In this document: in pieces, positions 6,807 through 51,906 of the stretch
How the letters are laid out: each line of letters opens with the position of its first letter
Numbering within the stretch: position 1 is the first letter of the stretch
Assembly: GCA_016219925.1 (NCBI GenBank)
Contig: JACRJU010000013.1
Span: 980-64,979, forward strand
Direction of reading: 5' to 3'
Length of the DNA: 64,000 bases
Source of the DNA: Candidatus Uhrbacteria bacterium
Lineage (GTDB): Bacteria > Patescibacteriota > Patescibacteriia > UBA9934 > GWF2-40-263
Notes under the pieces: model-generated
Database searches by the model: none
The model's input: only the letters and a program-made list of their open reading frames with translations
Told to the model about the DNA's origin: nothing
Made by a program: the position numbers and the translations under genes

Positions 6807-6883
6807 GGCGCTATTGTAGCGGGTAATGCGCACAAAGAAAAACATGACCACCCGGGTCATGTCAATCACGGGAAGGTTTTTCA

Positions 6884-8470
6884 TCAGTTTCGCACCAGCG
6901 GCGAAGCGTTCTCTCCCAAGATAATCAAGAAGTCGATATTGGGTTCTGTGGCCAGTTTTTCGTAATCTTCTCCTGTGACAGAAATACCATGCGGAACAAT
7001 ATCGCTACTGACCATCCAACCCGTTGCGGAAAGCGTGACATCGGCTTTGAGGAAGTCACGCAGGGCTTTGAGTTCGGATGATCGTGCACCATTGGTGAGA
7101 TCGTAGATCACGGTGTGGGAATAATCGCGCGAAACCGCATTCCCGACTTTGACGACATCAAAGCCTTGACCATCCAAAAGTTGGGAGGTTTTGAGCGCGA
7201 GACCGCCCAGGTTTGTTCCATTTTGAATTTCAATTTTAACAAACTTCGGACGTTCCTCACTGGCATGAGCCAAACGATTTTGTCCGGACTTTTGATTGAA
7301 CACATTTGCCGCAATATCTTGCAAGGGTTTCCAGTCATCATTTTTTGGCAAGAGGACAAAGGCGCCGTTGAGCGTCGTTGAATAGAGTGGAGAATCTTCC
7401 GACGCATCGATGACGCGGTTGGTGATGCGGTCTTCACCCAGAGTCTTGGCGGCACGCGCGAGACGGAGCATCTCGGGCACATCCATGTTTGTGGCGATAT
7501 TTTTTTGGAGCGTTTCCAAAATACGGTTCAGCCGCGCCGGATTCAGGAATGTCGAAACGGAAAACACCTTATCCTTGACCGCTAACAAAACTTTTTGCTG
7601 ACGCGCACTGCGCGCGAAGTCGGATCCCTCGCCGTTGGTTCCATGACGGGAGCGGACGAATTTGAGCGCCGTTGAACCGTCCATATGCATCCAACCTTCT
7701 TGGAATGTGAGTGTTTCAAATCGGCAGGAATAATTCGGGCCACGCGCCGGAGCGATCGGTGGCGCCTCTTCGATCGTAGGGGATTGTTCAGGGGTCGATT
7801 CTGTCGTCTGTTCTGTTAGACTCACGTTTCCGCAAGTGTCGTATTCCCGGCCGAGGGTTGGGTAGGTCGGATCCGTAAATGCGCGATCAATATACACATC
7901 CGCTCCCCCAATATCATTAATCAGCTGTTCAAAGCCGCTGAAGTCCACTCGGATATAATAAGGAATAGATTGATCCAATATCTGACCAATCACCTTGGAC
8001 GCAAGGGGACCTCCCGTTCCGGCTTTATCCATCTCGCCATACGCGTTTGCGTGGTTGACTTTGCTGTAGCCGTATCCTGGAATAGGGACACTCATGTCGC
8101 GTGGCAAAGACATCATGGCAATGTTTCCGCTGGACGGCTGATAGCTCGCCAAAATGATCGTGTCTGTAAGTTGAGGGCCTTCATGACCTTCTCCGCCGAT
8201 GCCCATAAGCAGAATATTCACGCGATCGCTCGTTTCTCCTTTGAGGGCACTGCCTTCGACAAAATGTCGTAGCGTAGAAAAAAGAGAAAGGTTGGGCATG
8301 ACACCGCGGCTGTTGGCGGAACTGCTTACACGATACGAGAATGCGGCGCCAGCCGTGGCCAGAACAATCAAAACAATCGCAAGGGAGCGACCAAAAAAAA
8401 GCAGGGAGCTTTTTTTGGGGTGGTGCAGTTCGTATTTCTGTTTCAAAAAATCAATCTTCAACTTCTCCAT
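6884..8470 (-). CDS. LytR-CpsA-Psr (LCP) family cell-envelope polymer transferase
   Basis: N-terminal TM. LCP core (NILLMGIGGEGHEGPQLTDTIILASYQP...MMSLPRDMSVPIPGYGYSKVNHANAYG). C-terminal LytR_C-like extension. Confidence 0.85.
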   Translation of the reverse strand: MEKLKIDFLKQKYELHHPKKSSLLFFGRSLAIVLIVLATAGAAFSYRVSSSANSRGVMPNLSLFSTLRHFVEGSALKGETSDRVNILLMGIGGEGHEGPQLTDTIILASYQPSSGNIAMMSLPRDMSVPIPGYGYSKVNHANAYGEMDKAGTGGPLASKVIGQILDQSIPYYIRVDFSGFEQLINDIGGADVYIDRAFTDPTYPTLGREYDTCGNVSLTEQTTESTPEQSPTIEEAPPIAPARGPNYSCRFETLTFQEGWMHMDGSTALKFVRSRHGTNGEGSDFARSARQQKVLLAVKDKVFSVSTFLNPARLNRILETLQKNIATNMDVPEMLRLARAAKTLGEDRITNRVIDASEDSPLYSTTLNGAFVLLPKNDDWKPLQDIAANVFNQKSGQNRLAHASEERPKFVKIEIQNGTNLGGLALKTSQLLDGQGFDVVKVGNAVSRDYSHTVIYDLTNGARSSELKALRDFLKADVTLSATGWMVSSDIVPHGISVTGEDYEKLATEPNIDFLIILGENASPLVRN

Positions 8471-12850: not shown

Positions 12851-13618
12851 GTGACACGCCCTGATATGTCTCTTGCAAACCGCATCAGCGATGACATGAA
12901 GGAGGCCATGAAAACCAAAAACAGCGCAACGCTTTCCACGTTGCGTTTGTTGCGTTCCGCGATGAAGAACAAACAGATCGATGTTCAACATGAATTGTCT
13001 GATGAGGAAATTTTAGCGGTCATCAAAACATCCGTGAAACAACTGCGCGATAGTATCGAATCTTTTGAGAGCGGCGGTCGGCAAGATTTGGCGCAAAGCG
13101 CGCGTGGGGAAGTGATCGTCCTTGAAGCTTACTTGCCTGCACAGCTTACAGATGAACAGCTTGAAAGGATGGTGAAGGAAGCCATCACACAGACGGGGGC
13201 AACCAGTAAACAAGACATGGGCAAGGTGATGGGAGCGGCCGTCAAGGCGGTTTCTGGCGGGGCAGATGGATCGCGCATCAAACAGATAGTCGAAAAATTT
13301 TTGCCGGTTATCGTTTTGGTCGGACTCACAGGTGTGCTGGTCGTTCATCCGGCACAAGCCGCCATTGATATCTTGCCGGTCCAGCTTTCGCAGTATTCCC
13401 TGTTTGAGACACTTGTGCGGATCTTGCGCGTCTTGCTCTTGTGGTTTGGCGTGCTCGCGATCAACATGATTTTACACGGCGGGTTTCTTTACATGGTGTC
13501 TTCCATGCGCGATGAGAACCATGCCAAAGCGTGGACTAAAATTGCAACAGGATTTTTGACTTCCTTGGCAATCGTCTTTTTGTATGGGATTGCGACAATT
13601 GTGATTGAAGTCATGTAG
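12851..13618 (+). CDS. GatB/YqeY-domain protein fused in-frame to a C-terminal signal-peptide plus two-helix pilin-like (tentatively TrbC/VirB2-like) membrane module
   Basis: Residues 1-150 match the YqeY domain (ANRISDDMKEAMKTKNSATLSTLRLLRSAMKNKQID...). From EKFL|PVIVLVGLTGVLVVHPAQAA onward the sequence is hydrophobic. It contains HGGFLYMVSS...AKAWTKIATGFLTSLAIVFLYGIATIV, homologous to the N-termini of the next two genes. Confidence 0.7.
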   Translation: MTRPDMSLANRISDDMKEAMKTKNSATLSTLRLLRSAMKNKQIDVQHELSDEEILAVIKTSVKQLRDSIESFESGGRQDLAQSARGEVIVLEAYLPAQLTDEQLERMVKEAITQTGATSKQDMGKVMGAAVKAVSGGADGSRIKQIVEKFLPVIVLVGLTGVLVVHPAQAAIDILPVQLSQYSLFETLVRILRVLLLWFGVLAINMILHGGFLYMVSSMRDENHAKAWTKIATGFLTSLAIVFLYGIATIVIEVM

Positions 13619-13646
13619 AGACCTCTGCCAAACTCGCGATCTCGGT

Positions 13647-13683
13647 AGAAAGAAAGAAGAATAAACCTTCTTTCTTTTTTTTC
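13647..13683 (+). terminator. rho-independent terminator
   Basis: GAAAGAAAGAAG-AATAAACC-TTCTTTCTTT hairpin followed by a T-run. Confidence 0.6.
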
Positions 13684-13744
13684 ACTTACGCTATCCACAC
13701 GTCCCTACTCTCGTCACTGCAAATGCGCTAAAATAGGAGCAGAC

Positions 13745-15598
13745 ATGCAGTGCATCCGCATGAAATTCAAAAATCGAGCAGCGGCAGCGTTAGGTGTGCT
13801 GTCTTTTTGCGTTCTCGGATTGATCGTTTTAGGACATCCGGCTTTCGCGCAGGATTTCTTGAGTCAGTCTGCGCAGACCTCTGGACTTCCACAGACAGAT
13901 TTGATCGTTGTGATTGCTCGTCTCATTCGGGCGTTTCTCGGAATTCTCGGGATTATTTTTGTCGTTTTGGTTATTTATGCGGGATACCTGTACATGACTT
14001 CTCAAGGTGATCCCACAAAAACAGCAAAAGCCAAAAAAATTATCAGCCAGGCCGTCATTGGCCTTATCATCATCTTGGCTTCCTTCGCGATCGTTTCTTT
14101 TGTCTTGGACGCTCTGTTAAAAAAGCCGAACGGGCAGATTAAGAGTTCACCGCCGGTGGAAAAGTATTATGAGCCGCTTTCCGGCGCCCTTGGGGCCGGT
14201 ATTGTTGAGAGTCATTACCCGCCACGCAACGCGTACGACATTCCGCGTAACACGAAAGTTTTCATCACTTTTAAGGAACCGATTGATCCGGCGTCCTTAA
14301 TCGATGGGTACAAGAAGGCACTCAGTGAAAAAGATCCGAATCAAGCCAAAGTCCTCAACACGACAAACGTGTGGTTGTATGAGACGGCAAAAGGGAAGGA
14401 CAAAAAATTGGCTTCGGTAGCCGTGAATGTCGCCACTAACGAAAAACACACGATTTTCGTTTTTGACCCCGTGGATCTTTTGGGAGATTCGGCGCAAAAC
14501 ACGAACTACACCTTCTCGCTTCAATCGGGGATTAAAAAGGATGATGGGAAAAATGCCTTTACCGGGGTGTATGCTTCCGGTTATGAGTGGACGTTCCAAG
14601 TCTCGACGAAACTTGATCTCACTCCACCGAAGGTAATTTCGGTTATTCCAAAACAGGACGCCAATGAACCCCGTAATACGACCATCGAAATTCAGTTCAA
14701 TGAAGCGATGGATCCAATTGCTTCTGCCGGTTCTTACCTTATCGGTATCGGTAAAGATCCCTTGTTCACCAACATCGCGGTCCTTGGGGCGGGACCAAAA
14801 AATGTGGAGGGGACGTATGAGATTAGTAGCGGATATCAAACGGTAGGGTTTACCACGACTGACGCGTGTGCGAAGGATCCTTGCGGTGACACGATCTATT
14901 GTCTTCCCGGTAATCAAAAATTTAGTGTCACGGCACGCGCGGCCACGCTTGATCCCTCCAGTCCTCCTCAAGCAAAGTTGGAAGGAGTTTCTTATGATGG
15001 ACTTACGGATGCCGCTGGCAACTCCCTTGACGGAAGTGGCGATGGCATCGCCTGTGGCTCGGATCAAGACAAGATCGCCTGCGCGGGTGGCGCGGCCAAC
15101 GACAATTATGCCTGGGGGTTCACCACAACCGCTGAGGTCAATAGCACGGTTCCGCAAGTGACCACGCTGACCCCCAGCGTGGATGGAGAAAATATCGATC
15201 CTAACAAGCCGATCGAGATTGGAGTGAGCACAGCGGTCAAATCATCGAGTGTGAACAGCAACACCGCGTCGCTTTGGCCGGATCCTCTCTATAAAGATAA
15301 ACAAGGGAAGATGTTTGCCATGTGGTTTGATCCTGACGCGGACAATTCAACCGGAAAAGGTTTGATTTCCATTGGACACCCGGCGTTTATCAGCAATGCC
15401 GAGGGAGGGTATGAGTACTATCCGGTTTTGACGCAGGGGATTAAGAGCGCGTATCAGATTTGTTTGTATCCAGCCACCCAACAGGGCGGGGCTTGCAATG
15501 GCGCGGATTCAACACAGCCCTATTGTTGCAACGGGAAGCCCTCGGCTGGTCCGTGCAAGACGAAAAAGGCTAAGGGGATTTTGCCGGGTAACGAATAA
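13745..15598 (+). CDS. secreted or cell-surface protein. N-terminal signal peptide plus pilin-like two-helix module, then Ig-like (SbsA/Big-type) domains and a Cys-rich C-terminal tail
   Basis: AGGAG RBS 6 nt upstream. Signal peptide ...LGHPAFAQ. LIRAFLGILGIIFVVLVIYAGYLYMTSQGDPTKTAKAKKIISQAVIGLIIILASFAIV module. LTPPKVISVIPKQDANEPRNTTIEIQFNEAMDP Ig-like repeats. Confidence 0.8.
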   Translation: MQCIRMKFKNRAAAALGVLSFCVLGLIVLGHPAFAQDFLSQSAQTSGLPQTDLIVVIARLIRAFLGILGIIFVVLVIYAGYLYMTSQGDPTKTAKAKKIISQAVIGLIIILASFAIVSFVLDALLKKPNGQIKSSPPVEKYYEPLSGALGAGIVESHYPPRNAYDIPRNTKVFITFKEPIDPASLIDGYKKALSEKDPNQAKVLNTTNVWLYETAKGKDKKLASVAVNVATNEKHTIFVFDPVDLLGDSAQNTNYTFSLQSGIKKDDGKNAFTGVYASGYEWTFQVSTKLDLTPPKVISVIPKQDANEPRNTTIEIQFNEAMDPIASAGSYLIGIGKDPLFTNIAVLGAGPKNVEGTYEISSGYQTVGFTTTDACAKDPCGDTIYCLPGNQKFSVTARAATLDPSSPPQAKLEGVSYDGLTDAAGNSLDGSGDGIACGSDQDKIACAGGAANDNYAWGFTTTAEVNSTVPQVTTLTPSVDGENIDPNKPIEIGVSTAVKSSSVNSNTASLWPDPLYKDKQGKMFAMWFDPDADNSTGKGLISIGHPAFISNAEGGYEYYPVLTQGIKSAYQICLYPATQQGGACNGADSTQPYCCNGKPSAGPCKTKKAKGILPGNE

Positions 15599-15725
15599 GA
15601 CCTCTGCAAAACTCGCGATCTTTGCTCTCACGTGCGCCCGTTGACCCCGCTCTCCCTACGTTTCAGTAGGGTTCGCGGGGATCAACAGCCCGTTTGAGCA
15701 AATCTCATCGAGTTTTGCAGAGGTC
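15599..15725. repeat. ~127-nt palindromic, highly structured intergenic element
   Basis: A 17-bp perfect inverted repeat: GACCTCTGCAAAACTCG (15599-15615) pairs with CGAGTTTTGCAGAGGTC (15709-15725). Inside are nested hairpins: TTGCTC/GAGCAA, TTGACCCCGC/GCGGGGATCAA, and CCCTAC-GTTTCA-GTAGGG. The left arm is a copy of the 22-nt motif that follows the stop of the upstream paralog at 13619-13642. Confidence 0.7.
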
Positions 15726-15738
15726 TCAAATACACTGC

Positions 15739-18700
15739 ATGAAGTTTTCTTTTCGATCATTAATTAAAGGATTTCTGCTCGCCCTGGCCGGCGCGGGTGC
15801 GCTCTTGGCGCTTCCCGCTCTTGCTCAGGTTGATCTTGGAGCTCTGAAAGCGTTTGGAGAGGCGGCGGGGTTCAGCACCGGCCCTTCCGTCACGCTTATC
15901 ATCGCCCGACTGATTCGCACCGCGCTTTCGTTCGTCGGGATTGTGGTTGTGATCATGGTTGTTTACGGAGGATTTTTGTACATGACGTCCGGCGGCAATG
16001 CCACACGTCTTGAAAAAGCCAAAAAGATTTTGATTCAAGCGGTCATCGGACTCCTGATCGTCCTTTCCTCGTTTGTGATTGTGCAGTTCATCATTTCTCG
16101 CATGGTGGAAGCAACCGGGGGAGGGGTTTCTTCATCGCAAAGCGGTCCGGGCGACTATCCAGATGGAACCACTCTGACATCGTTTCATCTCTCTTCGGTT
16201 AATACCCAGTGTGCTGCAGCTCTGAATAATTTACAGCTTCAGCTCGTTTTTTCAAAGGACGTAAATCCAGCAACGGTCTCGGCGGCGCTCGGCATCAAAA
16301 AACAAGGGGGCGGACCTGTCGAAGGAACGTTTGTTACAAGCGGCAGTCTCGTAACATTTACCCCATCGACTTCCTGTCCGGCACCGAATCCTCAAGCGAA
16401 ATGTTTTGATCCAAATGCTCAGAGTGCAACTTACAATCTCGTCGTGAATGCCGGTGTCTTGAAATCATCAAGCGGCGCAACGCTGAAGTGTACGACTGAA
16501 TTCCCGTGTTCGTTTACGTTTACCACAGGGACGGGAGTTGATGTGGCGGCTCCGACACTCTTCATGAGCGCTCCGGGCGACGGACAGTCTGTGGCCGCTG
16601 GGACGATTCAAATGTTGCAGGCAAAAACGCAGGATGACACCGGCGTTTCGAGCGTTGATTTTTATGCGGTGAATGACGACAGTCCTCTATTTACGTCTGG
16701 TTTAAATCTCTCGACCGCTGGGACGATTGTTGGTGGCAACCAGAACAATGCGTTTTCCACCGATCCCCAGCTCCAGTGGAATACCGCCGGTTACACCATA
16801 AACAAGAGCTATCCGCTTTGGGCGCGCGCGCTCGATTGCGCGGGTAATGCAACGGTTTCTACCAAAATTTCCGCGATGGTGAGAGGACCTAATTGCGACA
16901 ATGACGTCCAGGACGTTGATTTGGGCGAGACGGGTGTGGATTGTGGAGGCGATCCCGTTTCGGAATTTTATTGCGGAAAGTGTGATGAGCAAACCTGTAC
17001 GCAAAATAATGAGTGCGCTTCGGGTTTGTGTGAAAATGGAGTCTGCGTCAGCAAGCCACGCATTGATCAAGTTTCTCCCGGCGATGGAAAATCGGGGAAC
17101 CTCGTGACGATTTTTGGAGACGGATTTGAGGACGTAGGTGGAACGGTGACGTTTCTTGGAGGCGCGAGCGTGAGCACATCGGCGTATGCGTGCAACGGAA
17201 ATGTTTCTTGGAAAAAGAAGCAGATCGTGGTTCAGGTGCCGGAGGGAGCGCAAGATGGTCCGATTGAAGTAGCGACCGTTGGAGCAAAGAAAAAAACCGA
17301 TCGAACGGATGATGCGTTTGGTCCCCTTTCATCAGATTTTGATATCAACGCCGTTGCCCGTCCTGGATTATGTCTGGTAGATCCCGGCACCGCCAAGCCG
17401 GGAGCGCAGGTCAGCTTTTTCGGGTTAGGTTTTGGGGCCGTTCAGGGAGCTTCGAGCCTCTATTTTAAAGATGTCGTTTCGCCTTCTATTGTTTCTTGGG
17501 CCGATAAGCTCGTCAAAGGGGCTGTTCCAAACATGAATGCCGCTCCGATTACGACGCAGATTTTTTCTGGAACGTATCAGTGTGTGGATGACAAATTGCA
17601 ACAGATCGGCAAAACGTGTCAGCAGGATGAGGAGTGTGGAGAGGGGAACACCTGCGCAAAGAAATGGTGCACGGAAACGCTCGCTTATTGTTCGGACGAT
17701 GTCTCATGCGGGGTGCAAGGAGGCAAATGTCGCAGTGTCCGCGTTGGATCCAATGGTCTCAATTTCGTCGTTGGATCGTCAGCGGGCGACACGGAAAAAC
17801 CGGTGATCACTTATCTGGATTCAGGATGGTCTTCTTGCAACGGTGGGGCCAATAATGGAAAACATTGTGGCACGAAAGCGGATTGTGGTGATGGGGAATG
17901 TAAGGGCGCCCCTAACTGGGGACCTTCCGATCAGTATGTCACCATTTTTGGCACAGGCTTCGGGACGGCTAAGGGTCAAGTTTTCTTTACGAATGCCGCC
18001 GGACAAACCGCTCTTGCCAAAACGAATTTTCCGGAAATCTGTGGCGATGATTTTTGGAAGGATACGAGCGTGACGGTGAAAGTTCCGGACAGTCTTCAGG
18101 CGGGCGGGGCTGTGGACCCGGGAAATTATCAAGTGACGGTCAAAAAAGGGCCGGTCAGTTCCAATGGCGTAGATTTTGTCGTTGTGAAAGATCAACCCGG
18201 CCCGGCGATTTGTCATATTGATCCTCTCTCCGGTCCGGTCACGACGACGAAGGTTCAGGTATTTGGAGAAAATTTGGGAAATGAAAAAGGGGCGATCGCT
18301 TTTTACGATAAACAAAATGCGGATTATCTTTTCTGGAATTCAACGCAAGTGACTGATGCGGTCGTCCCCAAGGAAGCCAAGACCGGTCCTTTGGCCGCTG
18401 TTTCAAAAGTCGGTTATCGGTCCAACCCTGTATCCTTCACCGTTGGAAGTTGTCAGGAAAATGTCTCCTGTCCGGCCAACACGCAGTGCTGCGGGGACGG
18501 TTCCTGCAAAAAATCCTGCAACTTTATCCCGCCTGTTGCCAATTTTGCCTACCGAGTCTCGACAGGTTTGATCCCCAAAGCTCCGCAGATTCTTCCGTTG
18601 TGCAACGATAACGTGAAATCGCCAAGCCCGTGGGAATCGTGGCCAGATTCAAAAACCGTCTGTCGAAATTCGGTTGTTACAGCGACGTTTGATTTGATGA

Positions 18701-21700
18701 TGAATCAGGATTCGCTCAAGAGTCATGTCGCCGTCGAACAGTGCACGGACTTGCAAGCGGATGGATGCAAGGCGTGGCAAGCCGCTGAGGGGAATATGGT
18801 CACAAGTGAGACCACGTTTAACTGGACGCCAAACGTATTGTTTGCGGCCGCGACGCGTTATCGCGTTACAGTTGCCGGGGGAGAGGGCGGTGTGCAGTCG
18901 CACGCGAGTGTCGGCGGGGCGTTTATGGAGGAAGATTACTCGTGGGAGTTTTTAACAGCGCCTGGAGATCAAGTGTGCGATGTGGGTGGGGTGAACGTCA
19001 CGCCTTACACCTTTACGGCTGTCGAGGATGAGCAACAGGTTTCCTATCTGTCTCAACTCGTCGCGTCGGGATATCAGTGCGTGACCATTTCCTGCCAAGG
19101 CCAAAATATCAGTTGGTCATCTAACAAACCGGTTGCGGAAGTGCAACAGCCAAGCGTTGGAGTTGGACAATGCAAAGAGCAGGTGATTGCCCATGAAGAA
19201 ACACAAGGCGATCCGGCCAAAATTAAAGCGACCGTCTTGAATGCGGATCAACAGCCTTTCGATACCGGCGATCTGTTTATCAATTTTACCGATCCGACCG
19301 TTTCGAGTTTCTTCCCGCAATGTGCGACCGCGTGCGTCAATGCCAAACCGTGGGCGCGCTTTGGGGCGAAGATGAATCCAGGGAGTTTTGCTCAAGGAGT
19401 TTTGCTCTATGAGTGTGAAGACGCCATTTGCGGACCAGGTAAAATCAAAGACGCGGGACTCTTAAAGTCAGTGAGTTATGTAGATGACACGCGGACGCTT
19501 TTTGTTGAACTTTCAGGGAAAATGAAACCCGATAAATGGTATCGCGTGGTGTTGAAGGGGACGATATTGAAATCAATTTCTGGGGTTTTTCTGAAAGATT
19601 CGGGTTCTAACTTCGGTTCGGATCAAAACAAATTTTTCCCATCAGATTTTTCCTGGCGTTTTAAGACCAAGGTTTCGGATGTGAGCTGTGGAGTCGATTC
19701 GGTCTCGGTTATTCCCAAGACGACGATTTTGAAAACCATTGGAGCGCGAGAGCAATATCATGCGACGACATACGGCGCACCAGACGACTGTGATGCTTCG
19801 GGACAAGCGCTTCAGGACACGGGGTACACCTGGAAGACTTGGACAGCGGCGGATCTACAACCCGAACTCTTTACGCCAGCCCAAGGAGGCACCTCGCAGG
19901 ATGTGGCGTTCATGCTTAAAAATGGAGCGATTTCTCTTTCAAACAAGATGCCCCTTTGGTGCTCGCCGGTGTGTCTAAACACAGGCAGTCAGATCAATGC
20001 GAAAAAAGCGCTTTGTGGCGATGGGGTCGTCAATGGTCCTGGAAAAATCCCATCGGAAGAGTGTGATGGGGGAGCCTGGTGTTCCAGCAGTTGTTTGCTT
20101 ATCGGGACAAACGCGTGTGCCGCTGGTGTTGCGGCAAGCTGCTGTGGCAATGGGGCGGTAGATCCCGGTGAACAGTGCGACGATGGCGGACATATTCCAG
20201 GCGATGGCTGTTCGGACGTTTGTTTGAATGAAGGTTCGGCTTCGATTGGTTCCGTGTGTGGCGATGGCGTGATCGATTTTGCGCCGGGCACGGGAGGGGA
20301 AGATTGCGACGACGGAAACACGAAAGACGGTGACGGATGCTCATCCAAATGTTTGTTTGAAGGATCGATCGCGAAGGTTGCGGATTTTTCTGTGTGCGGC
20401 AATGGCGGCAATCCCGAAAAAGGAGAAGATTGCGATGATGGAAACAATATCAATGGAGACGGTTGCAGTGCGAGCTGTTTGAATGAAGGAACCGCACAGT
20501 GTGCTTTAGTCTGTTCGGATACGCAGGCAAGTTGTCAAACTAAACTGGACTGCGCAGTTGGAGCGGTTTGTGCTCCGGCGAAAACGCCCTGTTGCGGCAA
20601 TGGCGGCAATCCTGAAAAAGGAGAAGATTGCGACGACGGGAACGCGAAATCCGGTGATGGATGCAAGAGCTCGTGCTTGAAAGAAGGTTCTTCCGTTAAT
20701 TATGTCGTTCCATCTTTCTGTGGGGATGGGAAAAAAGAAACGGGAGAGGAATGTGAAGCGGATGGGAATCTCATTGGTCAAGCCTTTAAGATCGTGGGAT
20801 ATGGAGTCGCACAAGTAGGGAGTAAAGCCGCCAAAGAAGTTTCTCCTGAGGGCTATGCGGTTTCGACGATTACCGCAACCGCAGAGGGGATTCCCGGAAC
20901 AGCGACGCTTCAGGTGGAGTGTTCCTGCAAAACTGACGCTTCGTGCGGTGACACCAGTCTTTATGCCTGTGGCACAAGTGGATGCTGTTATCCGCGTCCG
21001 GATGTGACGGTTTTTGAGCCGTCAGGCAATGGACCTGGGGGTCAGGGATTTTGCCGTAATACCGCCGTACGCGTGAAATTCAATCAACAGATGGATCCGG
21101 TTTCTTTCGGCGCGCTCGATGCCGACGGCAATGGTTCGATTGATCAAAATGAGCTTGCGAATATTCGTTTGGAACTGGTCAGTAACAATGGCAACGACAG
21201 TGAAAATAATGAGAAAAATTGTCCGACCGACTATTTGTTTGCACAAGCGAATTCTTCACAAGAATCTGTGTTGGCGCGATTGTGGCACTGGGTAGAGCGG
21301 ACCGTTCAAGGGTTTTTCGGTCATGAGGCGCAAGCCGGCGATCCGAAAAAATGTGTTGCTCCCATTTCTTATCAAGCGGTCAATGCCAATGACGGACAAT
21401 GGGTGTATCTCACCTTGAATGCCCCTCTGGAAAAAAATTCCACGTATCGCATTCGCGTGGTGGGGGATACGGATCCAAGTGATACCAAGACCCAAGGTGT
21501 GAAAAGCGTGGATGGAGCCGACGCCTGTTTTGGGCCAGGATGTGCGACAGGATACAAGTCAGCCACGTTTAAGACAGGAAACGAAGTATGCTTACTGGAC
21601 GCGGTGACCATCGAAGACGTTGAAAAGATCGGCGCGGCGCCCTATGAGCCTCCAAGTCCAGCCTTCTTCACCAAGCTTAATGAAGAGCATCGATTCCTTT

Positions 21701-24700
21701 CGCAAGCGCAAACGTATCGCGCGGGTTTGGGAACATATGAACCGATCGTACCAACCAACATCTATGGGTGGAGCTGGGAGTGGGGATCCTCTGTCGCAGA
21801 CGATAAAACGAAACCAGAAGACATCGTTGATCTGACCTCACAGAAAAATCCGCCAGATCCAGGAATGGAAGGTCGATTGGCTGCCGTCGGCCATAATGGT
21901 TCTGAACATGTGCTCGCCAGCGCGGTCGTCAATAAAGATACGCTCAATAATCCCACCACGATTGGAACGGAAAAAGGCACCGTGGCCGGTACGCTTGAAG
22001 TCACCGCGCTCACCTGTGAAAATCCGTGGCCGGAACCGGATCCCCTTACTGGTTGGAAGCCTTATCTTGAAAAAACCGATCCGGCCAAGCCGTCTAACTT
22101 CGGTTTCTATTACTGTCGCGACCGAGGCGATCAAGGAACAGGGGATGACCTGCCTCCTTTGGATCCGCCGGTTGATGTGACTTCCATTGCGGTTGGCGGA
22201 CTTTTGCAAGAATTGTTCTTCAAGGTTCAAGGCACGCCAGATGCGATTGGGGTGCGCGTTTTCCAGAACCCGAATTATCTCTCGCCGGCCGCATGGTTTA
22301 AGTCGCAAAAGTTTACTGGAGCGTTTGGGCCGATTCAAATGGACGGTTATGAAGGCATTCAATCCGGCAATACCGCCTATGTGGCCGCGGCCAACGAGCA
22401 TGGGGTTGTTCTCTATCCGAATATTTACGTGATTTCTTACAATCCTAGCGCTGGAAGCGACGCCCGAGCGATTTTTGAAGAAATTTTGAAGAACTGGCGG
22501 TTCAATGCCAACACGAACGAAGTCAGCAATGTGAATCTGTGTCGGATTGGCAACAAATACATCAAGGACGACAGTGAAAATTATGTGGCTTGTTCTTGGG
22601 ATGGAGATTGTGTGGAGGCGCTGGTCGATGGGCAATGCACGGTTTCGCATCTCAAGGAAGAGGCTCTGGCTCTGTGTCCTTTGGCTCCTGAAAAGAAAGC
22701 CCTGTGTGATAGCGATAAGGCCAAGATTCAGCGCGACATGAAGCGCCTCACTGACATCACACAACAAGTCACAACCTTGGACGCCTATGGAGGCAAGAAT
22801 CGCCATTGTTCAGTAACGAAAACGCAATCATGCAGTGTAAACGAGCAGTGTCCGGGAACCGAGAAATGCGTTGCGGGATATCCCACCATTAAACAAGGCA
22901 CGTTCGTTCCTGCGATGAGCGTGAGCAAATGGGGGTCGTGGAACGCATCGTTCAGCAATGAGCTGGGCAGTGCCGTGCCTATTGATCCCCTCAATGTCTT
23001 TTGGCGATCCTGCTCGACCCTTGGTCCAAAGTACGATCCGGCAACCTGTTTTAACAGTATGGAAGGAAAATTTGTCTGTCCGAATCAATCTCATGTTTAT
23101 GCTTACCAAAACAAGGGTGGAGAAGCCTATACCTTGTTTACGCAACTTGAATTTATCGGGGCGCCATGGGTGTTTGATATTGATCCGTTTGAGAACGACG
23201 CCGCAACGATTGTCGCCGAGTACCCAGCCGGCGCAAACGTCCCGGGCCAGATGAAGAAGGGCTTTGCCCCGGCTCCAGTCTTTTGTTCGGATCAAAAAGT
23301 TTGGGGGACTTCCACCTCCTGCGGTGATGGAGTCGTTGGGGCTCAAGAGATCTGTGAGCCCGGACAGATACAGTCGGCTCCATGTACCGTGAGCGTAAAC
23401 GGTCAGCTAAAAAATGGGTTCATCAATGTAGGATGTCGTTCTGATGTGACGAAGCCAAAGGCCTGTCAAGAATATCAAACAGCGGACGAGGCCAAGATCG
23501 CGGGCGCGGTGTGTGTGCCCAACCAGTGCGGCAACGGTATTTTGGAAACAGGAGAACAGTGCGATGACGGAGCGCTCAACGGAACGTACGGACATTGTGG
23601 GAAGAGCTGTACTTTTGCGGGGTCTTTTGTGTGTGGGGATGGTTATTTAGCAGGAGGGGAACAGTGCGATTGCGGAACCCTTATCAATCACGCCGCTGTT
23701 GTAGCCGATCCCACGAGCTGGGCCGCGAAGAACAAAAATCAAAACCAAATCTGTTTCCAAGCGAACGGGCAATATAGTCCACTTCCAAATGGTTCCTGTT
23801 CATTTGATTGCAAAATCCCCGGACCATCCTGTGGAGATAAACTCGTAAACGGTGCCGAACAATGCGATGGCACAATGGAGACGTATGCAGGCAAACTTTG
23901 TCCAGACGGAAAAACCACCTGCGAAACAAATAACGATTGTCCTGGAAATGGAGTGTGCGGAGATCCTGGTCACATCGCGTGTCCTGCCAGTAGTCATGTG
24001 TGTGTTGGAGGAAACAAGGCCGGACAGAGCTGTACTCAAAATCAACAATGTGGAGCAGGAACCTGTTCAACCTTCAGCTACCCACTCACCCGCACGCGTC
24101 TTTGTACCAATGCCTGCACCTGGCCGGGATGGTCTGTTTGTTTGGGAGGAGATCAGATCTGCGGTAATGGGACAAAAGAAGGAACGGAAGAATGCGATGA
24201 CGGAAACCAAAACGATAACGATAGTTGTACCCACACGTGTAAGAAAAATATTTGTGGGGATAGTTATAAATTTGACGGGGTCGAAGCCTGCGACAATGGT
24301 GGGCAAAACGTGTTGCCTGACAGCCAAAACCCCTGTACGGCCCAGTATGGCGGCTCGTGCAATTACTGCAATACCCTGTGTCAATACAAGACCTTTTCTG
24401 GATCCTATTGCGGTGACGGGGTCATCAATGGAACCGAATTTTGCGATGGGAGCGCGATTCCGTATTCTTGTTTGAAAGTTTCCGGGTCGGATCGTTCGAG
24501 AGCAAAGAGCTGTCCGGCGACAGATGCCCTTGCCAAAGGGCCTTGCGATCAGGGCTTTACCTGCCAGCTGACGGGTGTGTGTAATGGCGGAACCCAAAAC
24601 GGTCAGCCTTGTACGCTCAAACCTCCAGCCAAAACAGTGGCCCAGTATACGGCTTCATCCAATCAGGCGGCGTGTGCAGGCGGGGGCGTCTGTGTGGCGC

Positions 24701-25911
24701 CGACTTGCACGAAAGACTGTACGGCGGCGTGTCCGTTTACGCTACAAACCACAAGTGTGCTTGTGCAAAGCGAACTGCCGGATGCTCAGCCACAGGAGAG
24801 CGTTGATCTCTACAGTTATTTCAACAAGGAAAAAAATTCTCCAGACAGCGCATCGCTTTTCTTGCCGGCGTGTAGCGTTGGAACACGCATCAGCGCGGAT
24901 GTTGATGACGCAAACGTCCATGAGCCTGATGTGGATGTGGTTTTCGTAACGGATCTTTCTGGAAGCATGATGGATGCGCCAAACGGCGGCGGGGCTGTGG
25001 TCCCAAACCGTCGCATCGACATTGTTGCGGAATCGACCGCAGAAGCCATTGATACGCTTTTTAATGCGTATGCGGGTTCTGAAGGGAAATTGCGCATTGG
25101 ACTTGTCAGTTTTGGGCAGAAGGATGATCCGGCAACACCGGTAAATGAGGAGATAACCGCGCAGTTAAATTCTGGGCTCCTTGAAAACTCGGGCGCAAAT
25201 AAACAACTTCTAAAATCCATCGCTCTTGGGTATCCAGCAAAAGTGGATGGGTGGACGCCAACTCCCGCTGGAATAAAAAAAGCCATTGAAGTTTTATCAA
25301 CCGAGCCCGACTCCCACGTAAAGGTCGTTGTTCTTCTTTCGGATGGAGATCCGACTTACGCTTTGGATCAAAAAAGTTGTGGCGATAAAAAGAACATCTC
25401 CGTTACGACAGAAGCCGGCCAGAAAACTCTTTCAGGAAGTCATTACTGTGTTGCTGAAGCTCGTTATGGTCCGCCAGGAGGTCCATCGATGATTAAAGGT
25501 CACTCAGAAATTTTCTTCTATTCCGCCGCGATTGCCACCTCAAATGATTTGCGAGCGCAAATGGAGCACATGTCAAGTATGGGATGTGCGGGGAATGATA
25601 TGTCTAGCATAGATGACTGCCAGGATGGCTTGTATGCTTTTGATGCAGACACCAAAGAAGAGATCAAACAGATGTACGATCAAATCATGACGTCTATCTT
25701 AAGTGCAACGACAACGATCACCGCTTCGAAGAATGGTTCGGTGAAATCCGCAACCGGACTCACTCCAGTGGGCAACAATGTGACCATTCCCGTTCCTGAT
25801 ACCTTCCAGTGCCAAAGTCAACCATTCACCATGCCGATGAAAACGAATTTCTATGGAACCGGCACGATGAAATTTAGCAACTTTAGCTTTACGTATTGTC
25901 CGTTGCCTTAG
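15739..25911 (+). CDS. giant (~3,390 aa) cell-surface adhesin-like protein. Pilin-like N-terminal module, multiple IPT/TIG-Ig domains, Myxococcus-type Cys-rich repeats, C-terminal von Willebrand factor A domain
   Basis: First ATG is at 15739 ([30 protein letters not shown]). The track TTG at 15694 lies inside the palindrome. Module: [65 protein letters not shown]-like: [44 protein letters not shown]. Cys repeats: [28 protein letters not shown] (x5-6). vWA MIDAS: [12 protein letters not shown] ... [12 protein letters not shown]. Confidence 0.85.
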
Positions 25912-35980: not shown

Positions 35981-36017
35981 TATCTTCGCCGAATTCTGGA
36001 GTTCCAACTGATTTTCA

Positions 36018-36707
36018 TTAAAGAAACCTCTTTAATTCATCTTTTACCTCTTTTGAATACGAAGAATAGTTTTTGAAGTAATCGATTTGTGAATAGAGAT
36101 ATTCTAAAGGATCGCCGCAATCAAGATAATGCCCATCTAGAATTATAGTTGCCAGAAGACCAGTGTCCTCCTTCATAATATTTATGATGTCTGTAAGCCA
36201 AAGTTCACCATGTAGTCCTGGGACTGTTTTATCAAGTGCATCGAATACAGATGGCAACAGAACATAAGCACCATGTGTAGCAAAAGATGACGGCTCTTCA
36301 CCGAACTTTGGTTTTTCGACAATGCGAACGATCTCCTTTACGTTTTCTTCTCCGTTTATATCCTTAAATTCTGCCATTCCGTACCTGCTACGTTTTGTAG
36401 GATCTTTAATTTCTATAGCAGAAATAACTGGTTTTTTATATTTTTCAAATGTCTCTAAGCATTGCTGAATTCGAGGTTTATATTTTGAGATGATAATTTC
36501 GTCAGACCAGACAAGAACGAACGGCTCATCGGAAACGAGATGTCTCGCTGCTTCAAGCGCTCCTCCATTTCCATACGGTGGTTTAGTGTACACAAAACTA
36601 AAATTCGCCATCTCTGTAATACGCTTCAACTCAGTAACCTGGTCTTTTTTTCCAAGCTTCAGAAAGTAATCCTCAAGAATTTCATTTGGGGAGAAAAAAC
36701 TTTCTGC
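36018..36707 (-). pseudogene. 5'-truncated UTP-glucose-1-phosphate uridylyltransferase-like (GalU-type sugar nucleotidyltransferase) gene remnant
   Basis: Open frame ...ILEDYFLKLGKKDQVTELKRITEMANFSFVYTKPPYGNGGALEAARHLVSDEPFVLVWSDEII...IVEKPKFGEEPSSFATHGAYVL matches the central and C-terminal GalU motifs. The N-terminal GxGTRxLPxTK nucleotide-binding segment is absent. The frame is closed by a TGA at 36708-36710. Confidence 0.6.
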
Positions 36708-37120
36708 TCAGGAACAAAATGATGGATATTATATTTTTGAGCAAGTTCCCCATTTTTTTCTTGAAATTTAGGATCTGATCCGTCAAGAAAATAAATATCT
36801 TTCTTAGGATAATCTAAAGAGAAAAGACAAATAAATGTTGCTTCAAGGACACCGAGCGGTTCATTGCGTGCTGGCACTAAAACCGTGACATCGGGCAAGT
36901 TTTTTGTATCAAGTTTTACGCGTCGATAACGATTTGCATTTGGCTTTCCTAGTCGAATAATGCTAGTCAAAAATCCAAATGACTGTAGAATTGCGTGTCC
37001 TTCAGCAAAAAGTAGTAACAACCCAAAAAATACGTTTAAGATGCCTATGCTTTGTGAAGCATAGGTGTAAACACGAAATCCAAAATAGACTATTAGACTT
37101 CCTAACGCTAAACTCGCCAA
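36659..37120 (-). pseudogene. 3'-truncated family-2 glycosyltransferase (cellulose-synthase-like) N-terminal fragment
   Basis: Two or three N-terminal TM helices, then VTVLVPARNEPLGVLEATFICLFSLDYPKKDIYFLDGSDPKF (GT2 start). It stops after 153 aa, before the DxD and QxxRW motifs. It is one frame away from the galU-like fragment at an A6 run (36694-36699). Confidence 0.55.
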
Positions 37121-37304
37121 GTGTGTGTGTGTTGTCTCACATTCAACAATTCTATTGTGAAATTATATCATAAACGTGCGTCATTGGCTTTAGGTTTAAG
37201 TGATTTTCCCGGGGTTGGCGACGCAACAAAACTTAAATCTAAACCACCTCGTTGGGCTTTTCTACTCTGAAATAGGTTCCGACCCCTTCCACAACGTCCC
37301 GCCA

Positions 37305-37337
37305 GAAAAACAACCTGATTTCATCAGGTTGTTTTTT
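37305..37337 (-). terminator. bidirectional rho-independent terminator, serving the minus-strand gene 37435-37866
   Basis: AAAAA-CAACCTGAT-TTC-ATCAGGTTG-TTTTTTT: a perfect 9-bp stem flanked by an A-run and a T-run. Confidence 0.6.
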
Positions 37338-37434
37338 TACCCACGAATGCAAGGACGGAGTTCGAACTCCAGAGAGTTCGGAGGGTCGTTCCCCAAACTT
37401 TTAGGACGGAGGGGGAACCGCAAGAACAAAAATT

Positions 37435-37866
37435 TTAAAAATTCGGTTTTGATCTCATTTCTTTTTGTCGCTGTTGTAAACGTGAGAAACGTTCTTGAGC
37501 TTCCTGAACATTTTTCGTATTCATAAATTCTTTTGGAACACCAAATGCATCACAAATTCTTTGCCCGAATTTTGGTCCTTTATCCATCGTCCAATTTTCT
37601 ATTCCCTGTTTTACAACTTCCTCTATATCTCTGTTTGGAACGCGAAATAAATCTCTTATTTTGATTGCGGTTTCAAAATTATCACTTGAACGAGAGTCAA
37701 GAAGATGTTGTGTAATCCCACCGATAGCGGCATCTCTGACCTCATTATTATCCAGAATTTCAGACGGAATTGGACCGTCTCCAAGAGTTTTTAGGACTTC
37801 TTCCAAAAAACCGAATCGTAAATCTTCAACGATATCGTTGACCAATTTTTGAGTTTGTGGGTTCAT
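37435..37866 (-). CDS. hypothetical protein (143 aa) in an AT-rich island
   Basis: Clean ORF with a downstream terminator. No recognisable domain. The region is about 38 % GC against a roughly 50 % flank. Confidence 0.5.
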   Translation of the reverse strand: MNPQTQKLVNDIVEDLRFGFLEEVLKTLGDGPIPSEILDNNEVRDAAIGGITQHLLDSRSSDNFETAIKIRDLFRVPNRDIEEVVKQGIENWTMDKGPKFGQRICDAFGVPKEFMNTKNVQEAQERFSRLQQRQKEMRSKPNF

Positions 37867-37890
37867 AAATTTACGTTCGCTCCTTATTTT

Positions 37891-38607
37891 TTACACAGGT
37901 ATCCCCACCGCCTTTTTTAGTTCGTTCACTTCGGAATCGGTGAGAGAGCGCCATTTGCCGGCAGGATAGGTGGAGGGCATTTTGAGCGTGAGAATGCGCG
38001 TGCGTTTGAGTGAGACCACGCGGTATCCGAGAGCTTCGCACATGCGGCGAATCTGACGGTTGCGTCCTTCGCGCAAGATAATCGCGAAGCGTTTGGTATC
38101 CATCTGCCGCACCTTGGCCGGAAGCGTCATGCCGTCCTTAAGCCCCATGCCGTTTTGCCACTGCTTGATATCTTTTGATAGAAGCGACCGATCTACTTCG
38201 ACCACATACTCTTTATCGTGCTCATAACGCGGGTGCATGAGTCGGTTTGAAAGGGTCCCATCGTTGGTCAACAAGAGAAGCCCTTCGCTTTGGACATCCA
38301 ATCGGCCAACGGGGAAAACTCGTTCTTCCAGATCGATCAGATCCATCACGTTGTCTTTTTTGTGCCGGTCCGAAGTGACGATCACCCCGACCGGCTTGTT
38401 GAGCAAGAGGTAAATTTTTTTGGGTTGGATCTTTTTGGCGCGGCCTTCCACGCGCACCGTATCGCTCTCGCTAACCTTGTCACCAAGCTTGGCGCGTTTG
38501 TCATTGATAAAAACCCGCCCGGACTCAATGAGTCGGTCGGCTTCTCGTCGTGAACAATAACCTTGTTCAGAGAGATACTTGTTGATGCGGACAGGAAGAT
38601 TTTTCAT
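37891..38607 (-). CDS. pseudouridine synthase, RsuA/RluB family (S4 plus catalytic domain)
   Basis: S4 RNA-binding N-terminus (RINKYLSEQGYCSRREADRLIESGRVFIN). Catalytic-Asp motif FPVGRLDVQSEGLLLLTNDG. Confidence 0.88.
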   Translation of the reverse strand: MKNLPVRINKYLSEQGYCSRREADRLIESGRVFINDKRAKLGDKVSESDTVRVEGRAKKIQPKKIYLLLNKPVGVIVTSDRHKKDNVMDLIDLEERVFPVGRLDVQSEGLLLLTNDGTLSNRLMHPRYEHDKEYVVEVDRSLLSKDIKQWQNGMGLKDGMTLPAKVRQMDTKRFAIILREGRNRQIRRMCEALGYRVVSLKRTRILTLKMPSTYPAGKWRSLTDSEVNELKKAVGIPV

Positions 38608-41617: not shown

Positions 41618-41700
41618 GTCTTTTTGCGGTTTATGCCATGTCGGAGGGAACAGCGGCGAGGAGTCCGCTGGCCCGGAGACATGGCATAAACCGCAAGACA
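41618..41700. repeat. long perfect stem-loop, possibly an island-boundary element
   Basis: An 18-bp perfect inverted repeat: TGCGGTTTATGCCATGTC with GACATGGCATAAACCGCA. An inner CAGCGG/CCGCTG hairpin sits inside. It lies between smpB and the GC-rich gene. Confidence 0.6.
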
Positions 41701-41881
41701 ATACCGCCAACGATTGAAGAGATCGTTAGGGGACACTTTTGTCGACGTGTAGTCTGTGTTGAGGCGACAAAAGTTTGTCCCATCGATCTCGCTCACACCA
41801 GACGATAGGAGACAAAATGGAATGATAAATGAAGAGAGAAGGAGATAAAAAAATGAACCGCGGTGAAACGGTTCGGAGGGA

Positions 41882-48346: not shown

Positions 48347-48416
48347 TCAGTCTCATAAAAAGCCATTTTTTGACATAAAAAGCCTAAAAAGGTCTTTTTT
48401 TGTCTGTTCCCGTCTC

Positions 48417-48445
48417 TTGACATTTTTGTCTGATTATGCTACATT
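48417..48445 (+). promoter_or_regulatory. sigma70-like promoter (TTGACA, 17 nt, TACATT) driving the R1 leader
   Basis: TTGACA at 48417-48422 and TACATT at 48440-48445. AT-rich, immediately upstream of the structured leader. Confidence 0.45.
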
Positions 48446-48594
48446 GCCACGTTCAATGCTCCTTATGTGACCCGCGTTTTGAAGCGGTTTGATGTCCAGC
48501 CGGAATGCCTCCTCCTCATTCTGCGCCGGATATCAGACCACTTCAGACCGTATGGTCTGGTGTGTCCCTTAAAACATCACCAAGAACATATTTG

Positions 48595-48850: not shown

Positions 48851-48853
48851 ACA

Positions 48854-51757: not shown

Positions 51758-51877
51758 GTCACAACGATCCCTTCTGCCCACTGCGTCTTCCAACCGGTGG
51801 GCGCTTTTTTTTGTCAGACATTTGTGACTTTTAGTCAAAAATTGCCGTTTTTATTACAAAATACGCGTTTGGATGGC

Positions 51878-51906
51878 TTGACAAATCGGCTATTTTATGA
51901 TATATT
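51878..51906 (+). promoter_or_regulatory. strong sigma70-like promoter (TTGACA, 17 nt, TATATT) driving the R2 leader
   Basis: TTGACA at 51878-51883, a 17-nt spacer, and TATATT at 51901-51906. An AT-rich block inside the GC-rich island. Confidence 0.55.

Follow-up and report, generated by a model that had tools for sequence, protein, structure and literature searches.

The palindrome that separates the pilin-Big5 gene from the giant gene is very probably a copy of a non-autonomous, non-coding MITE dispersed through Candidatus Uhrbacteria, and the 23-nt motif behind the preceding YqeY-pilin gene is the leftover end of a second copy. We propose that the two motif copies are alike because both are ends of one mobile family, and that their likeness does not reflect a signal common to the pilin genes. 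The window, that is, the whole 64-kb stretch of DNA read from the source genome, contains one full copy and one fragment (Table 1).

The shared motif noticed after both stop codons is real. The sequence GACCTCTGC[C/A]AAACTCGCGATCT is found at 13620-13642 and 15599-15621, two matches against a chance expectation of 0.02. The first copy starts 1 nt past the TAG (13616-13618), one base before the originally predicted 13621, while the second abuts the TAA (15596-15598) with no gap, as predicted. The 17-nt arm is present again, inverted, at 15709-15725, also as predicted, but the perfect inverted repeat measures 18 bp and not 17. Likewise, the right arm does lie close to the giant-gene ATG at 15739, although 13 nt intervene instead of 14; this ATG is in frame with the giant open reading frame.

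The 18-bp inverted repeat closes a rod-like hairpin of -78.8 kcal/mol (z = -11.7), and none of 200 shuffled sequences was as stable. All the nested stems described earlier are contained in the minimum-free-energy fold. The hairpin occupies the spacer from the pilin-Big5 stop codon up to 11 nt 5' of the giant-gene ATG. No T-run follows it; CAAATACACTGCATG stands there instead, and the terminator scan finds nothing, which bears out the earlier view that this is not a simple intrinsic (Rho-independent) terminator. Covariance model R1 scores the element at 141 bits on the plus strand and 70 bits on the minus strand over model positions 1-130, and nhmmer at 112 bits versus 32 bits. Its left terminal inverted repeat is the most conserved block of the family.

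The fragment behind the YqeY-pilin gene is identical to the left end of the full copy at 23 of 25 bases, and it begins on the G that ends the TAG stop codon. A right end was sought 3' of this fragment and none was found; what survives is a 27-nt stump, unable to form the hairpin. Two other long hairpins in the window, at 48.6 kb and 51.9 kb, gave no nhmmer or covariance-model match to the family. The Logan contig carrying the pilin-Big5 gene breaks 28 nt into the element, 28 nt past the stop codon; a repeat would account for this, but so would strain variation, and the break is not counted as evidence here.

Table 1. Positions of the genes, repeat copies and signals discussed here, with hairpins found in the equivalent spacer of orthologous loci
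Feature	Coordinates or locus	Strand	Remarks
YqeY domain followed by hydrophobic C-terminal segments	12851..13618	+	Pfam YqeY, E = 2e-48
Solo 5'-terminal fragment of second repeat copy	13618..13644	+	Model positions 2-28; nhmmer E = 4.7e-4
Canonical intrinsic terminator of YqeY-pilin gene	13647..13679	+	13-bp stem, then T-run
GCGCTAAAATA box, likely -10 region for pilin-Big5/giant operon	13725..13735	+	Ancestral, outside repeat
617-aa protein with T4SS_pilin and Big_5 domains	13745..15598	+	Conserved across Uhrbacteria
Putative 4-nt target-site duplication, left copy GAAT	15593..15596	+	3 of 4 bases equal to AAAT at 15728-15731
Full ~130-nt palindromic repeat copy (MITE-like element), AAGACC...GGTCTC	15597..15727	+	Between pilin-Big5 stop codon and giant-gene start
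Left terminal inverted repeat	15598..15615	+	18-bp perfect inverted repeat; includes part of second 23-nt motif
Right terminal inverted repeat	15709..15726	+	Inverted match to left arm
Putative target-site duplication, right copy AAAT	15728..15731	+	Register shared with family
Giant gene, 3390 aa	15739..25911	+	N-terminal T4SS_pilin match, Big_5 and VWA domains
Pilin-Big5/giant spacer hairpin	L028		84-nt spacer; z = -5.3
Pilin-Big5/giant spacer hairpin	L030		103 nt; z = -5.0
Pilin-Big5/giant spacer hairpin	L040		314 nt; -148 kcal/mol
Pilin-Big5/giant spacer hairpin	L044		35 nt

The dispersed nature of the element is illustrated by searching with a 20-mer from the motif, which matches 23 DNA stretches across nine other genome assemblies, in copies of ~130 nt. 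Eight of these assemblies bear the label Uhrbacteria or unclassified bacterium; the remaining one carries the name Gammaproteobacteria, yet it has the Uhrbacteria-type syntenic locus. Nine more metagenome stretches carry the element, and the sampled host loci range from 42 to 59% GC. With the covariance model, 35 full copies and several fragments were recognized, including 12 or more full copies in genome nzgw366, spread over three contigs, and 2-4 copies in each of several other genomes. The copies are 126-131 nt long, except those with nested inserts, for a model of 130 positions, and their terminal inverted repeats extend over ~19 bp (GAGACCTCTGCAAAACTCG). No start-to-stop open reading frame is present in the left-end consensus of the family. 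Copies of the element lie at ~35 unrelated loci in other Uhrbacteria, where the neighbours (DoxX, PGK, glycosyl hydrolase, DUF3179 and others) have no relation to pilins. Where both neighbouring genes run in one direction, the element shares their orientation in 10 cases and opposes it in 10, according to crude ORF calls. L032 is a solo left end, and L039 is a hybrid with a different interior. L004 had been considered a left end fused to foreign DNA; comparison with L015 showed that it is a normal copy truncated where the stretch ends.

The sequences flanking the copies point to transposition. In the 4 nt immediately outside GAGACC...GGTCTC, 76 of 112 positions match between the two sides, versus 32 with permuted partners, and none of 2000 permutations reaches this value. 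Perfect 4-nt direct repeats flank 15 of the 35 full copies, and 21 of the 35 show a match of at least three bases in four. These repeats all differ in sequence, with no evident consensus. The four copies found after the hypothesis had been set (L031, L034, L037 and L038) all have perfect flanking repeats, while that of the window's own copy is imperfect (3/4). These 4-nt flanking repeats are target-site duplications.

The stems of the element covary, as had been thought worth checking. Across 27 aligned copies, paired cells make up 95.6%, and both sides have changed in 30 of 50 pairs, a level reached by none of 500 shuffles; the outer 19 pairs are conserved. On the defined strand, 11 G:T pairs stand against 24 A:C mismatches, so that there is no G:U excess; on the opposite strand the A:C mismatches would read as G:U. 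That G:T does not exceed A:C is the pattern expected of a DNA palindrome. The asymmetric internal loops (CGATCT opposite ATCTCAT) and the polarity are retained in all copies, and conservation spans the whole element, beyond its ends. Between species, the element is 78-85% identical, compared with 72-75% for the HisRS coding DNA. Such whole-length conservation is more than would be expected if a transposase had only to recognize the ends.

No pilin match was obtained in a Pfam search with the C-terminal part of the YqeY-pilin protein, and its pilin-like label derives from the original prediction and from sequence composition. This protein ends in ...IEVM*, and its orthologues end in EVM*, EVI* or EII*; the position of its stop codon is thus ancestral. 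A search with the 617-aa pilin-Big5 protein gave 561 homologues, the closest relatives being 56-62% identical. The idea that insertion truncated the genes and thereby created the stop codons was rejected, since both C-termini and stop positions match those of orthologues.

Two further signals lie between the YqeY-pilin and pilin-Big5 genes. The intrinsic terminator just past the fragment, missed in the original prediction, is ancestral and lies outside the repeat; equivalent terminators are found in the same intergenic region of orthologous loci. The GCGCTAAAATA box likely acts as a promoter: the intergenic region was read in eight orthologous loci, and in seven of these the same box, or GCGATAAAAT / GCGATACAAT, is located ~10-40 nt 5' of the ATG; in L041 it takes the form GCGGTAAAATA. 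No outward-facing promoter was found on the plus strand inside the element itself.

The insertion site was compared with orthologous loci. A metagenome scan with the 617-aa protein gave no relatives, and the loci were obtained by protein search and contig look-ups. Nine of them preserve the order HisRS, YqeY-pilin, pilin-Big5, giant gene. All nine lack the element at the pilin-Big5/giant junction; these relatives are 50-62% identical in the pilin-Big5 protein, and no exact empty site can be aligned in them. Were the element removed from the window, the empty site would read ...AACGAATAA joined directly to ATACACTGCATG. In five of the nine this spacer is only 2-5 nt long. Two of the genomes with an empty junction have the element elsewhere (L015; L004, L006 and L008). 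The first junction, after the YqeY-pilin gene, lacks the element in seven of the eight loci read. The exception is L041, where a divergent member of the family follows the YqeY-pilin stop codon; given this member, the YqeY-pilin junction may be a preferred target.

We propose that the element inserted into a very short operon spacer between the pilin-Big5 stop and the giant-gene start, probably by a 4-bp staggered cut, and that the motif behind the YqeY-pilin gene is what remains, at the 5' end, of a second copy that has decayed. Mobilization would occur in trans, by a putative transposase recognizing the terminal repeats. Co-transcription with the operon would then yield an mRNA with a ~55-bp hairpin between two cistrons. 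Cleavage by RNase III, protection of the upstream message and weaker translation of the giant gene are hypothetical side effects of such a hairpin.

A transposase-carrying element with the same ends was not found among left-end matches, plasmids, phages, IMG/VR or ten window ORFs. Every left-end match either has a right end within ~200 nt or is a short fragment; plasmids, phages and IMG/VR yielded no match, or a single chance one within coding sequence; and no transposase domain is present in the ten ORFs scanned in the 36-53 kb part of the window. The terminal repeat and the 4-bp duplication might point to IS5-, IS701- or IS1380-like insertion sequences, as a lead only.

An alternative to which we give little weight is that the hairpin transposed in as described but was then kept because a hairpin in the RNA between the two cistrons determines how strongly the genes are expressed relative to each other. 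By analogy with the REP sequences in the E. coli malEFG operon, it would guard the transcript of the pilin-Big5 gene against 3' exonucleases, or reduce read-through and translation of the giant gene. Consistent with this, the window hairpin fills the spacer and buries an AGAGG within its right arm, and unrelated stable hairpins are present in the same spacer in the other four of the nine orthologous loci (Table 1), the remaining five having 2-5 nt. However, L028 and L030 have enlarged spacers at further junctions of this syntenic block, and the inserts may just mark permissive sites in genomes holding many small palindromes. The lack of orientation bias across the family also stands against a function of this kind. 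In its broadest form, this idea would place the junction under recurrent selection for an intercistronic hairpin, five of ten lineages having independently filled an ancestral 2-5-nt spacer and the MITE having been co-opted here to adjust how much of the small pilin-like protein is made relative to the giant one. Such a scenario seems improbable; if true, the whole-length conservation and compensatory evolution of the repeat would reflect a host-level RNA or DNA function rather than mere selfish spread.

It is very unlikely that the element is a cis-regulatory RNA dedicated to the pilin module, that is, a processing, stability or attenuator element common to the paralogues. This reading was attractive, as both copies lie directly behind the stop codons of adjacent pilin-domain genes, the hairpin is very stable with covarying stems, and L041 has its diverged member after the YqeY-pilin stop codon. 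It is already largely refuted, and the evidence does not favour treating the element as a feature of the pilin module. The ~35 other copies adjoin unrelated genes, both orientations are equally common (10 vs 10), target-site duplications flank the copies, there is no G:U excess, and copy 1 is a stump without a hairpin. Furthermore, the second junction is empty in 9/9 orthologous loci and the first in all eight read except L041; absence from orthologous loci, named beforehand as evidence against such a role, is thus essentially what was observed, with this one diverged exception. No structured-RNA family could be assigned either: Rfam 15 gave no match over the whole window at the gathering threshold, and at E up to 10 on 13400-15900 it returned only noise, with nothing on the plus strand of the element and a single overlapping row, a 15.8-bit lncRNA on the minus strand, which is itself noise. 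The variable orientation and the lack of an Rfam match both speak against a cis-regulatory or structured RNA.

It is scarcely credible that the motif is the tail of a tandem gene duplication, marking the ends of duplicated pilin-module genes, or that the 18-bp inverted repeats form a recombination site or invertible switch around a 93-bp phase-variable segment before the giant gene: the same 23 nt do follow two adjacent genes with an N- or C-terminal pilin segment in common, and inverted repeats before a giant surface-protein gene look inverton-like, but the coding sequences 5' of the two copies bear no relation to each other, the motif forms the end of a repeat dispersed genome-wide, inversion of the 93-bp interior, itself palindromic and with no promoter-like site, would change almost nothing, and copies elsewhere are not beside surface-protein genes.

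Recognition of the MITE family removes a tempting but wrong reading, that of a regulatory signal common to pilin genes. A full-text literature search gave no description of this Uhrbacteria family, which appears to be a hitherto undescribed MITE family of the Candidate Phyla Radiation. It can serve as a marker of recent change in genomes that are very small and streamlined, and it is a repeat of which annotators and assemblers should beware. The insertion described here offers a natural test case for the effect of a 55-bp hairpin, placed in a tight operon junction, on how a giant surface protein is expressed. That the hairpin shows strong compensatory evolution without an RNA-strand signature also raises a modest question, namely what maintains palindromy in such elements.

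The Uhrbacteria element is short and non-coding, has terminal inverted repeats and 4-nt duplications, is dispersed in many copies and is missing from some sites, which are the features of a MITE. In common with bacterial MITEs, it measures ~130 bp, has no ORF, ends in ~19-bp terminal inverted repeats with 4-bp duplications and occurs in many intergenic copies, some orthologous sites being occupied and others empty, some copies decayed or reduced to one end, and some carrying nested insertions. It differs from them in that a parent insertion sequence with matching ends was not found, in that the whole element is one rod-like hairpin maintained by compensatory changes, and in that its subfamilies are common to species across the sampled GC range. 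An integron attC site was rejected, as the arms TGCAAAAC / GTTTTGCA do not fit the R''/L''...L'/R' core sites (RYYYAAC...GTTRRRY), and solitary dispersed copies with 4-nt duplications contrast with attC cassette arrays, which have no target duplication. REP/BIME sequences, associated with RAYT transposases, are likewise dispersed extragenic palindromes able to stabilize upstream mRNA; however, REP units are 20-40 nt long, often clustered and without duplication, and a RAYT-associated palindrome is ruled out here by the ~130-nt size, the solitary copies and the flanking 4-nt duplications. The ERIC / IRU repeats of enterobacteria are ~127-bp imperfect palindromes found in transcribed intergenic regions in either orientation; they are conserved across genera and can alter mRNA stability. 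They have no sequence similarity to the Uhrbacteria family and, in contrast to it, no clear target-site duplications. The closest working analogy is provided by the Correia elements (NEMIS) of Neisseria. These have no known autonomous partner. They share no sequence relationship with the Uhrbacteria family and duplicate TA, whereas the latter duplicates 4 nt without evident consensus. Correia elements are 100-155 bp long, carry ~26-bp terminal inverted repeats and frequently insert near genes, with which they are co-transcribed, folding into hairpins that are cleaved by RNase III.

Both copies of the post-stop motif in the original prediction are present, although copy 1 begins at 13620 rather than 13621. 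They are the only matches in the 64 kb (up to three mismatches allowed; 0.02 expected by chance), and further copies, which the prediction had suggested looking for, are dispersed in other genomes. The 17-nt arm of copy 2 is inverted again at 15709-15725, and the perfect inverted repeat of the full copy, put at 17 bp, extends to 18 bp. On folding, 15596-15745 forms a single rod-like hairpin (-78.8 kcal/mol, z = -11.7) containing the nested stems listed earlier. No T-run lies 3' of it, in line with the earlier exclusion of a simple intrinsic terminator. The family profile matches the window at 15597-15727 and in a fragment at 13618-13644 (model positions 2-28), and nowhere else.

Features of the window, decayed family copies and orthologous loci. 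Bare coordinates refer to the window; L-numbers are stretches of other Uhrbacteria genomes or metagenomes.
Feature	Location	Details
Motif copy 1, GACCTCTGCCAAACTCGCGATCT	13620-13642	begins 1 nt past TAG 13616-13618
Motif copy 2, GACCTCTGCAAAACTCGCGATCT	15599-15621	begins directly past TAA 15596-15598
Canonical terminator	13647-13679	3' of motif copy 1
YqeY-pilin gene	12851-13618	YqeY domain, hydrophobic C-terminal segments
Pilin-Big5 gene	13745-15598	T4SS_pilin, Big_5; 617 aa
Giant gene	15739-25911	T4SS_pilin, Big_5, VWA; 3390 aa
Solo ends	window 13618-13644; L020:385-402; L032; L041:635-664	
Truncated right end	L020:3750-3909	
Short version	L020:2483-2566	84 nt
Nested small GC-rich palindromes	L014, L020	
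Copies lengthened by other inserts	L021, L023	
Gene order	L041-L044	HisRS, small S21-like gene (uncalled in L044), YqeY-pilin, pilin-Big5, giant gene
Same order	L025	no called S21-like gene; peptidase S26 upstream
Same order	L027, L030	peptidase S26 visible upstream, as in L025
Extra genes	L028	inserted 5' of pilin-Big5 gene
Upstream side	L040	runs only to contig end
Pilin-Big5/giant spacer	L025, L027, L041, L042, L043	2-5 nt
Pilin-Big5/giant spacer	L044; L028; L030; L040	35; 84; 103; 314 nt

A scan with ACCTCTGCMAAACTCGCGAT, using one genome per species, found 23 DNA stretches from nine genome assemblies, whose labels include six Ca. Uhrbacteria, one "bacterium" only and one Gammaproteobacteria; GC of the sampled host loci ranges from 42 to 59%. 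The last of these assemblies (CAYMBX, GCA_964388785.1; stretches L015 and L027), labelled 'uncultured Gammaproteobacteria', has an Uhrbacteria-type syntenic locus (L027) and the Uhrbacteria repeat, so its label looks wrong or its bin mixed. The flanks of the scan matches show conservation of the whole ~127-nt element, beyond the motif alone, with a partner arm 107-110 nt away for nearly every arm. A covariance model of the family (130 positions, 50 pairs) yielded 35 full copies plus fragments from genome and metagenome stretches, and genome nzgw366 has at least 12 full copies. In every copy one strand outscores the other by far; the family thus has a conserved polarity, visible in an internal loop, CGATCT opposite ATCTCAT. 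No Rfam family matched it, and literature queries, the sequence itself among them, returned no description. A public short-read Logan contig with the 617-aa gene (SRR12113407_182300) ends 28 nt past the stop codon, within the left arm, which is compatible with an assembly broken by a repeat or by strain variation at this site.

The copies are flanked by direct repeats of the 4 nt just outside GAGACC...GGTCTC. In the first 28 copies, 76/112 flank positions match, vs 32 with partners permuted (0/2000 permutations as high). With boundaries taken from the covariance model, the repeats are perfect in 15 of 35 copies and match at three or more of the four positions in 21. The perfect repeats vary by copy (CATG, GTCT, TAAG, CCCA, ACCA, ATCA, TAGT, TAAC, ATTT, TTAA, TCTA, AATA, AATG, ACCT, AATC), and all four metagenome copies obtained after the hypothesis was formed have perfect ones. 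The full copy in the window is flanked by GAAT and AAAT, a 3/4 match. Decayed forms are frequent. In addition, 33-36-nt palindromes, CCCGCCCGAACGA...TCGGGCGGG, sit at differing positions within copies (L014:3808-3973, L020:3750-3909) and look like a second, smaller mobile palindrome nesting in the 127-nt element.

A protein search labels the 617-aa protein as Candidatus Uhrbacteria and finds its orthologues across this group (closest ~60% identity). Nine orthologous loci were compared (L025, L027, L028, L030, L040-L044; two of them are also represented by a second copy, L026 and L029). None of the nine has the element at the pilin-Big5/giant junction; two of their genomes, CAYMBX and JACQXU, have the family at other loci. 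Both window proteins end like their orthologues (...EVM*; ...GNE* vs GNQ*), so the insertions lie just past ancestral stop codons, and truncation of the window genes is rejected. In the first intergenic region, all eight loci read have a T-run terminator and, after it, a GCG[C/A/G]TA[A/C]AAT box, and both are therefore ancestral, whereas the 27-nt stump between stop codon and terminator is found in the window only. L041 carries a diverged 95-nt family member directly past the YqeY-pilin stop codon (1750-1844; ends GAGACCGTCAAAAAACTCG; -55.7 kcal/mol). Independent insertions at a favoured spot seem more likely than common descent, since the stump, with 23/25 bases shared, is closer to the canonical left end than to the L041 variant. 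In JACPHT, a diversity-generating retroelement (reverse transcriptase, next to a bAvd gene in L028) lies directly 5' of the pilin-Big5 orthologue (L028:3552-4961, L029:519-1403), which hints that this surface protein is a hypermutation target in that lineage.

Each of the longer spacers contains an unrelated hairpin, and it is possible that hairpins are recurrently selected at the pilin-Big5/giant junction and that the MITE would have been co-opted there; we consider this improbable, and the expansion of further junctions in L028 and L030 speaks against it. The 314-nt spacer L040:3350-3663, unrelated in sequence to the window element, folds into a very long nested hairpin (-148 kcal/mol) with two small ones after it.

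Neither the pilin genes nor the direction of transcription is linked to the element. Other copies adjoin genes for DoxX, DUF4015 and other glycosyl hydrolases, DUF4870, DUF3179 and phosphoglycerate kinase. By crude ORF calls, copies between co-directional genes run with them in 10 cases and against them in 10, and seven more lie between convergent or divergent genes. The idea of a signal shared by the pilin module is thus largely contradicted by unrelated neighbours, both orientations and empty orthologous junctions. A stop codon lies within 0-3 nt of many copies, among them the two of the window. Solo ends abutting stop codons recur across loci; the inverted right end at L041:635-664 overlaps the HisRS stop codon, a T plus the element's GA giving TGA.

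Covariation, proposed earlier as a check, is strong. In the model-based alignment of 27 copies, 95.6% of cells are paired and 30 of 50 pairs have changes on both sides; the score is 0.318, vs 0.092 for shuffled alignments (0/500 as high) and at most 0.066 for slid partners, in an alignment whose fitting to the model favours pairing. Compensatory changes also appear in an independent MAFFT and RNAalifold run. The mismatches (11 G:T, 24 A:C, 34 others) show no excess of wobble pairs on the defined strand; read from the opposite strand, the A:C ones would be G:U. The missing wobble excess and the absence of orientation bias are more in keeping with a palindrome preserved as DNA, or one working on either strand, than with a strand-specific RNA. 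Identity between the element and its copies in other species is 78-85%, vs 72-75% for HisRS coding DNA and 65-66% for the pilin-Big5 gene and its orthologues, which could reflect either horizontal spread or constraint on the whole element.

Further palindromes occur in the window. Two long hairpins (48594-48770, 51938-52097) with common outer stems, GGTTTCTCTCTGCAC / GTGCAGAGAGACAACC, precede 106-nt leaders (48745-48850, 52085-52190) that are 99% identical, each folding into a second domain and followed by the start codon (ATG) of a MopE-type repeat protein (PF11617); for 48590-48870 the fold energy is -134 kcal/mol (z = -9.5). Neither hairpin matches the 127-nt family profile or Rfam. The motif (GTCATC)CTGAGCGAAGG / TGTCATCCTGAAGGA occurs within the first (48641-48726), in an element with the family's left end and another interior (L039:470-725) and, as CTGAGCGAAGG only, in the L028 pilin-Big5/giant spacer (6807-6890), which suggests another palindromic repeat family forming hybrids. 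Cys/Asp-rich repeat genes (NNCDG-type repeats, MopE motif) fill the block 48000-58000 (GC 61-64% vs ~50% for the genome), whose composition may be driven by these repeats or reflect horizontal acquisition. Adjacent hairpins at 41624-41696 (19-bp perfect stem) and 41719-41790 (26-bp stem at 81%) lie just past the 3' end of the minus-strand ORF 41882-42940, and 36000-38000, including a nucleotidyl-transferase gene, is a 39% GC block unlike the remaining window in composition.

We propose that the element is, in all probability, a MITE-like non-autonomous transposon, mobilised in trans by a putative transposase making 4-bp staggered cuts. A full copy would have landed in the tight pilin-Big5/giant operon junction, and the 23-nt "post-stop motif" past the YqeY-pilin gene would be the solo 5' end of another. 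Five relatives have 2-5 nt between the pilin-Big5 and giant genes, which makes co-transcription of the two very likely; the transcript would bear a ~55-bp hairpin starting at the stop codon and ending 11 nt short of the giant-gene ATG. The element apparently represents an undescribed family for the Candidate Phyla Radiation. Defining tests set it apart from an intrinsic terminator, an attC site, a REP unit and a strand-specific cis-regulatory RNA, and it shows five of the six MITE characteristics tested. The sixth is an autonomous partner: left-end hits had their right end within about 200 nt or were short fragments, ten window ORFs scanned between 36 and 53 kb had no transposase domain, and plasmid, phage and IMG/VR searches gave at most one chance match in a coding sequence. 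In how it works, the element resembles Correia (NEMIS), ERIC and other bacterial MITE families; it has no sequence in common with them.
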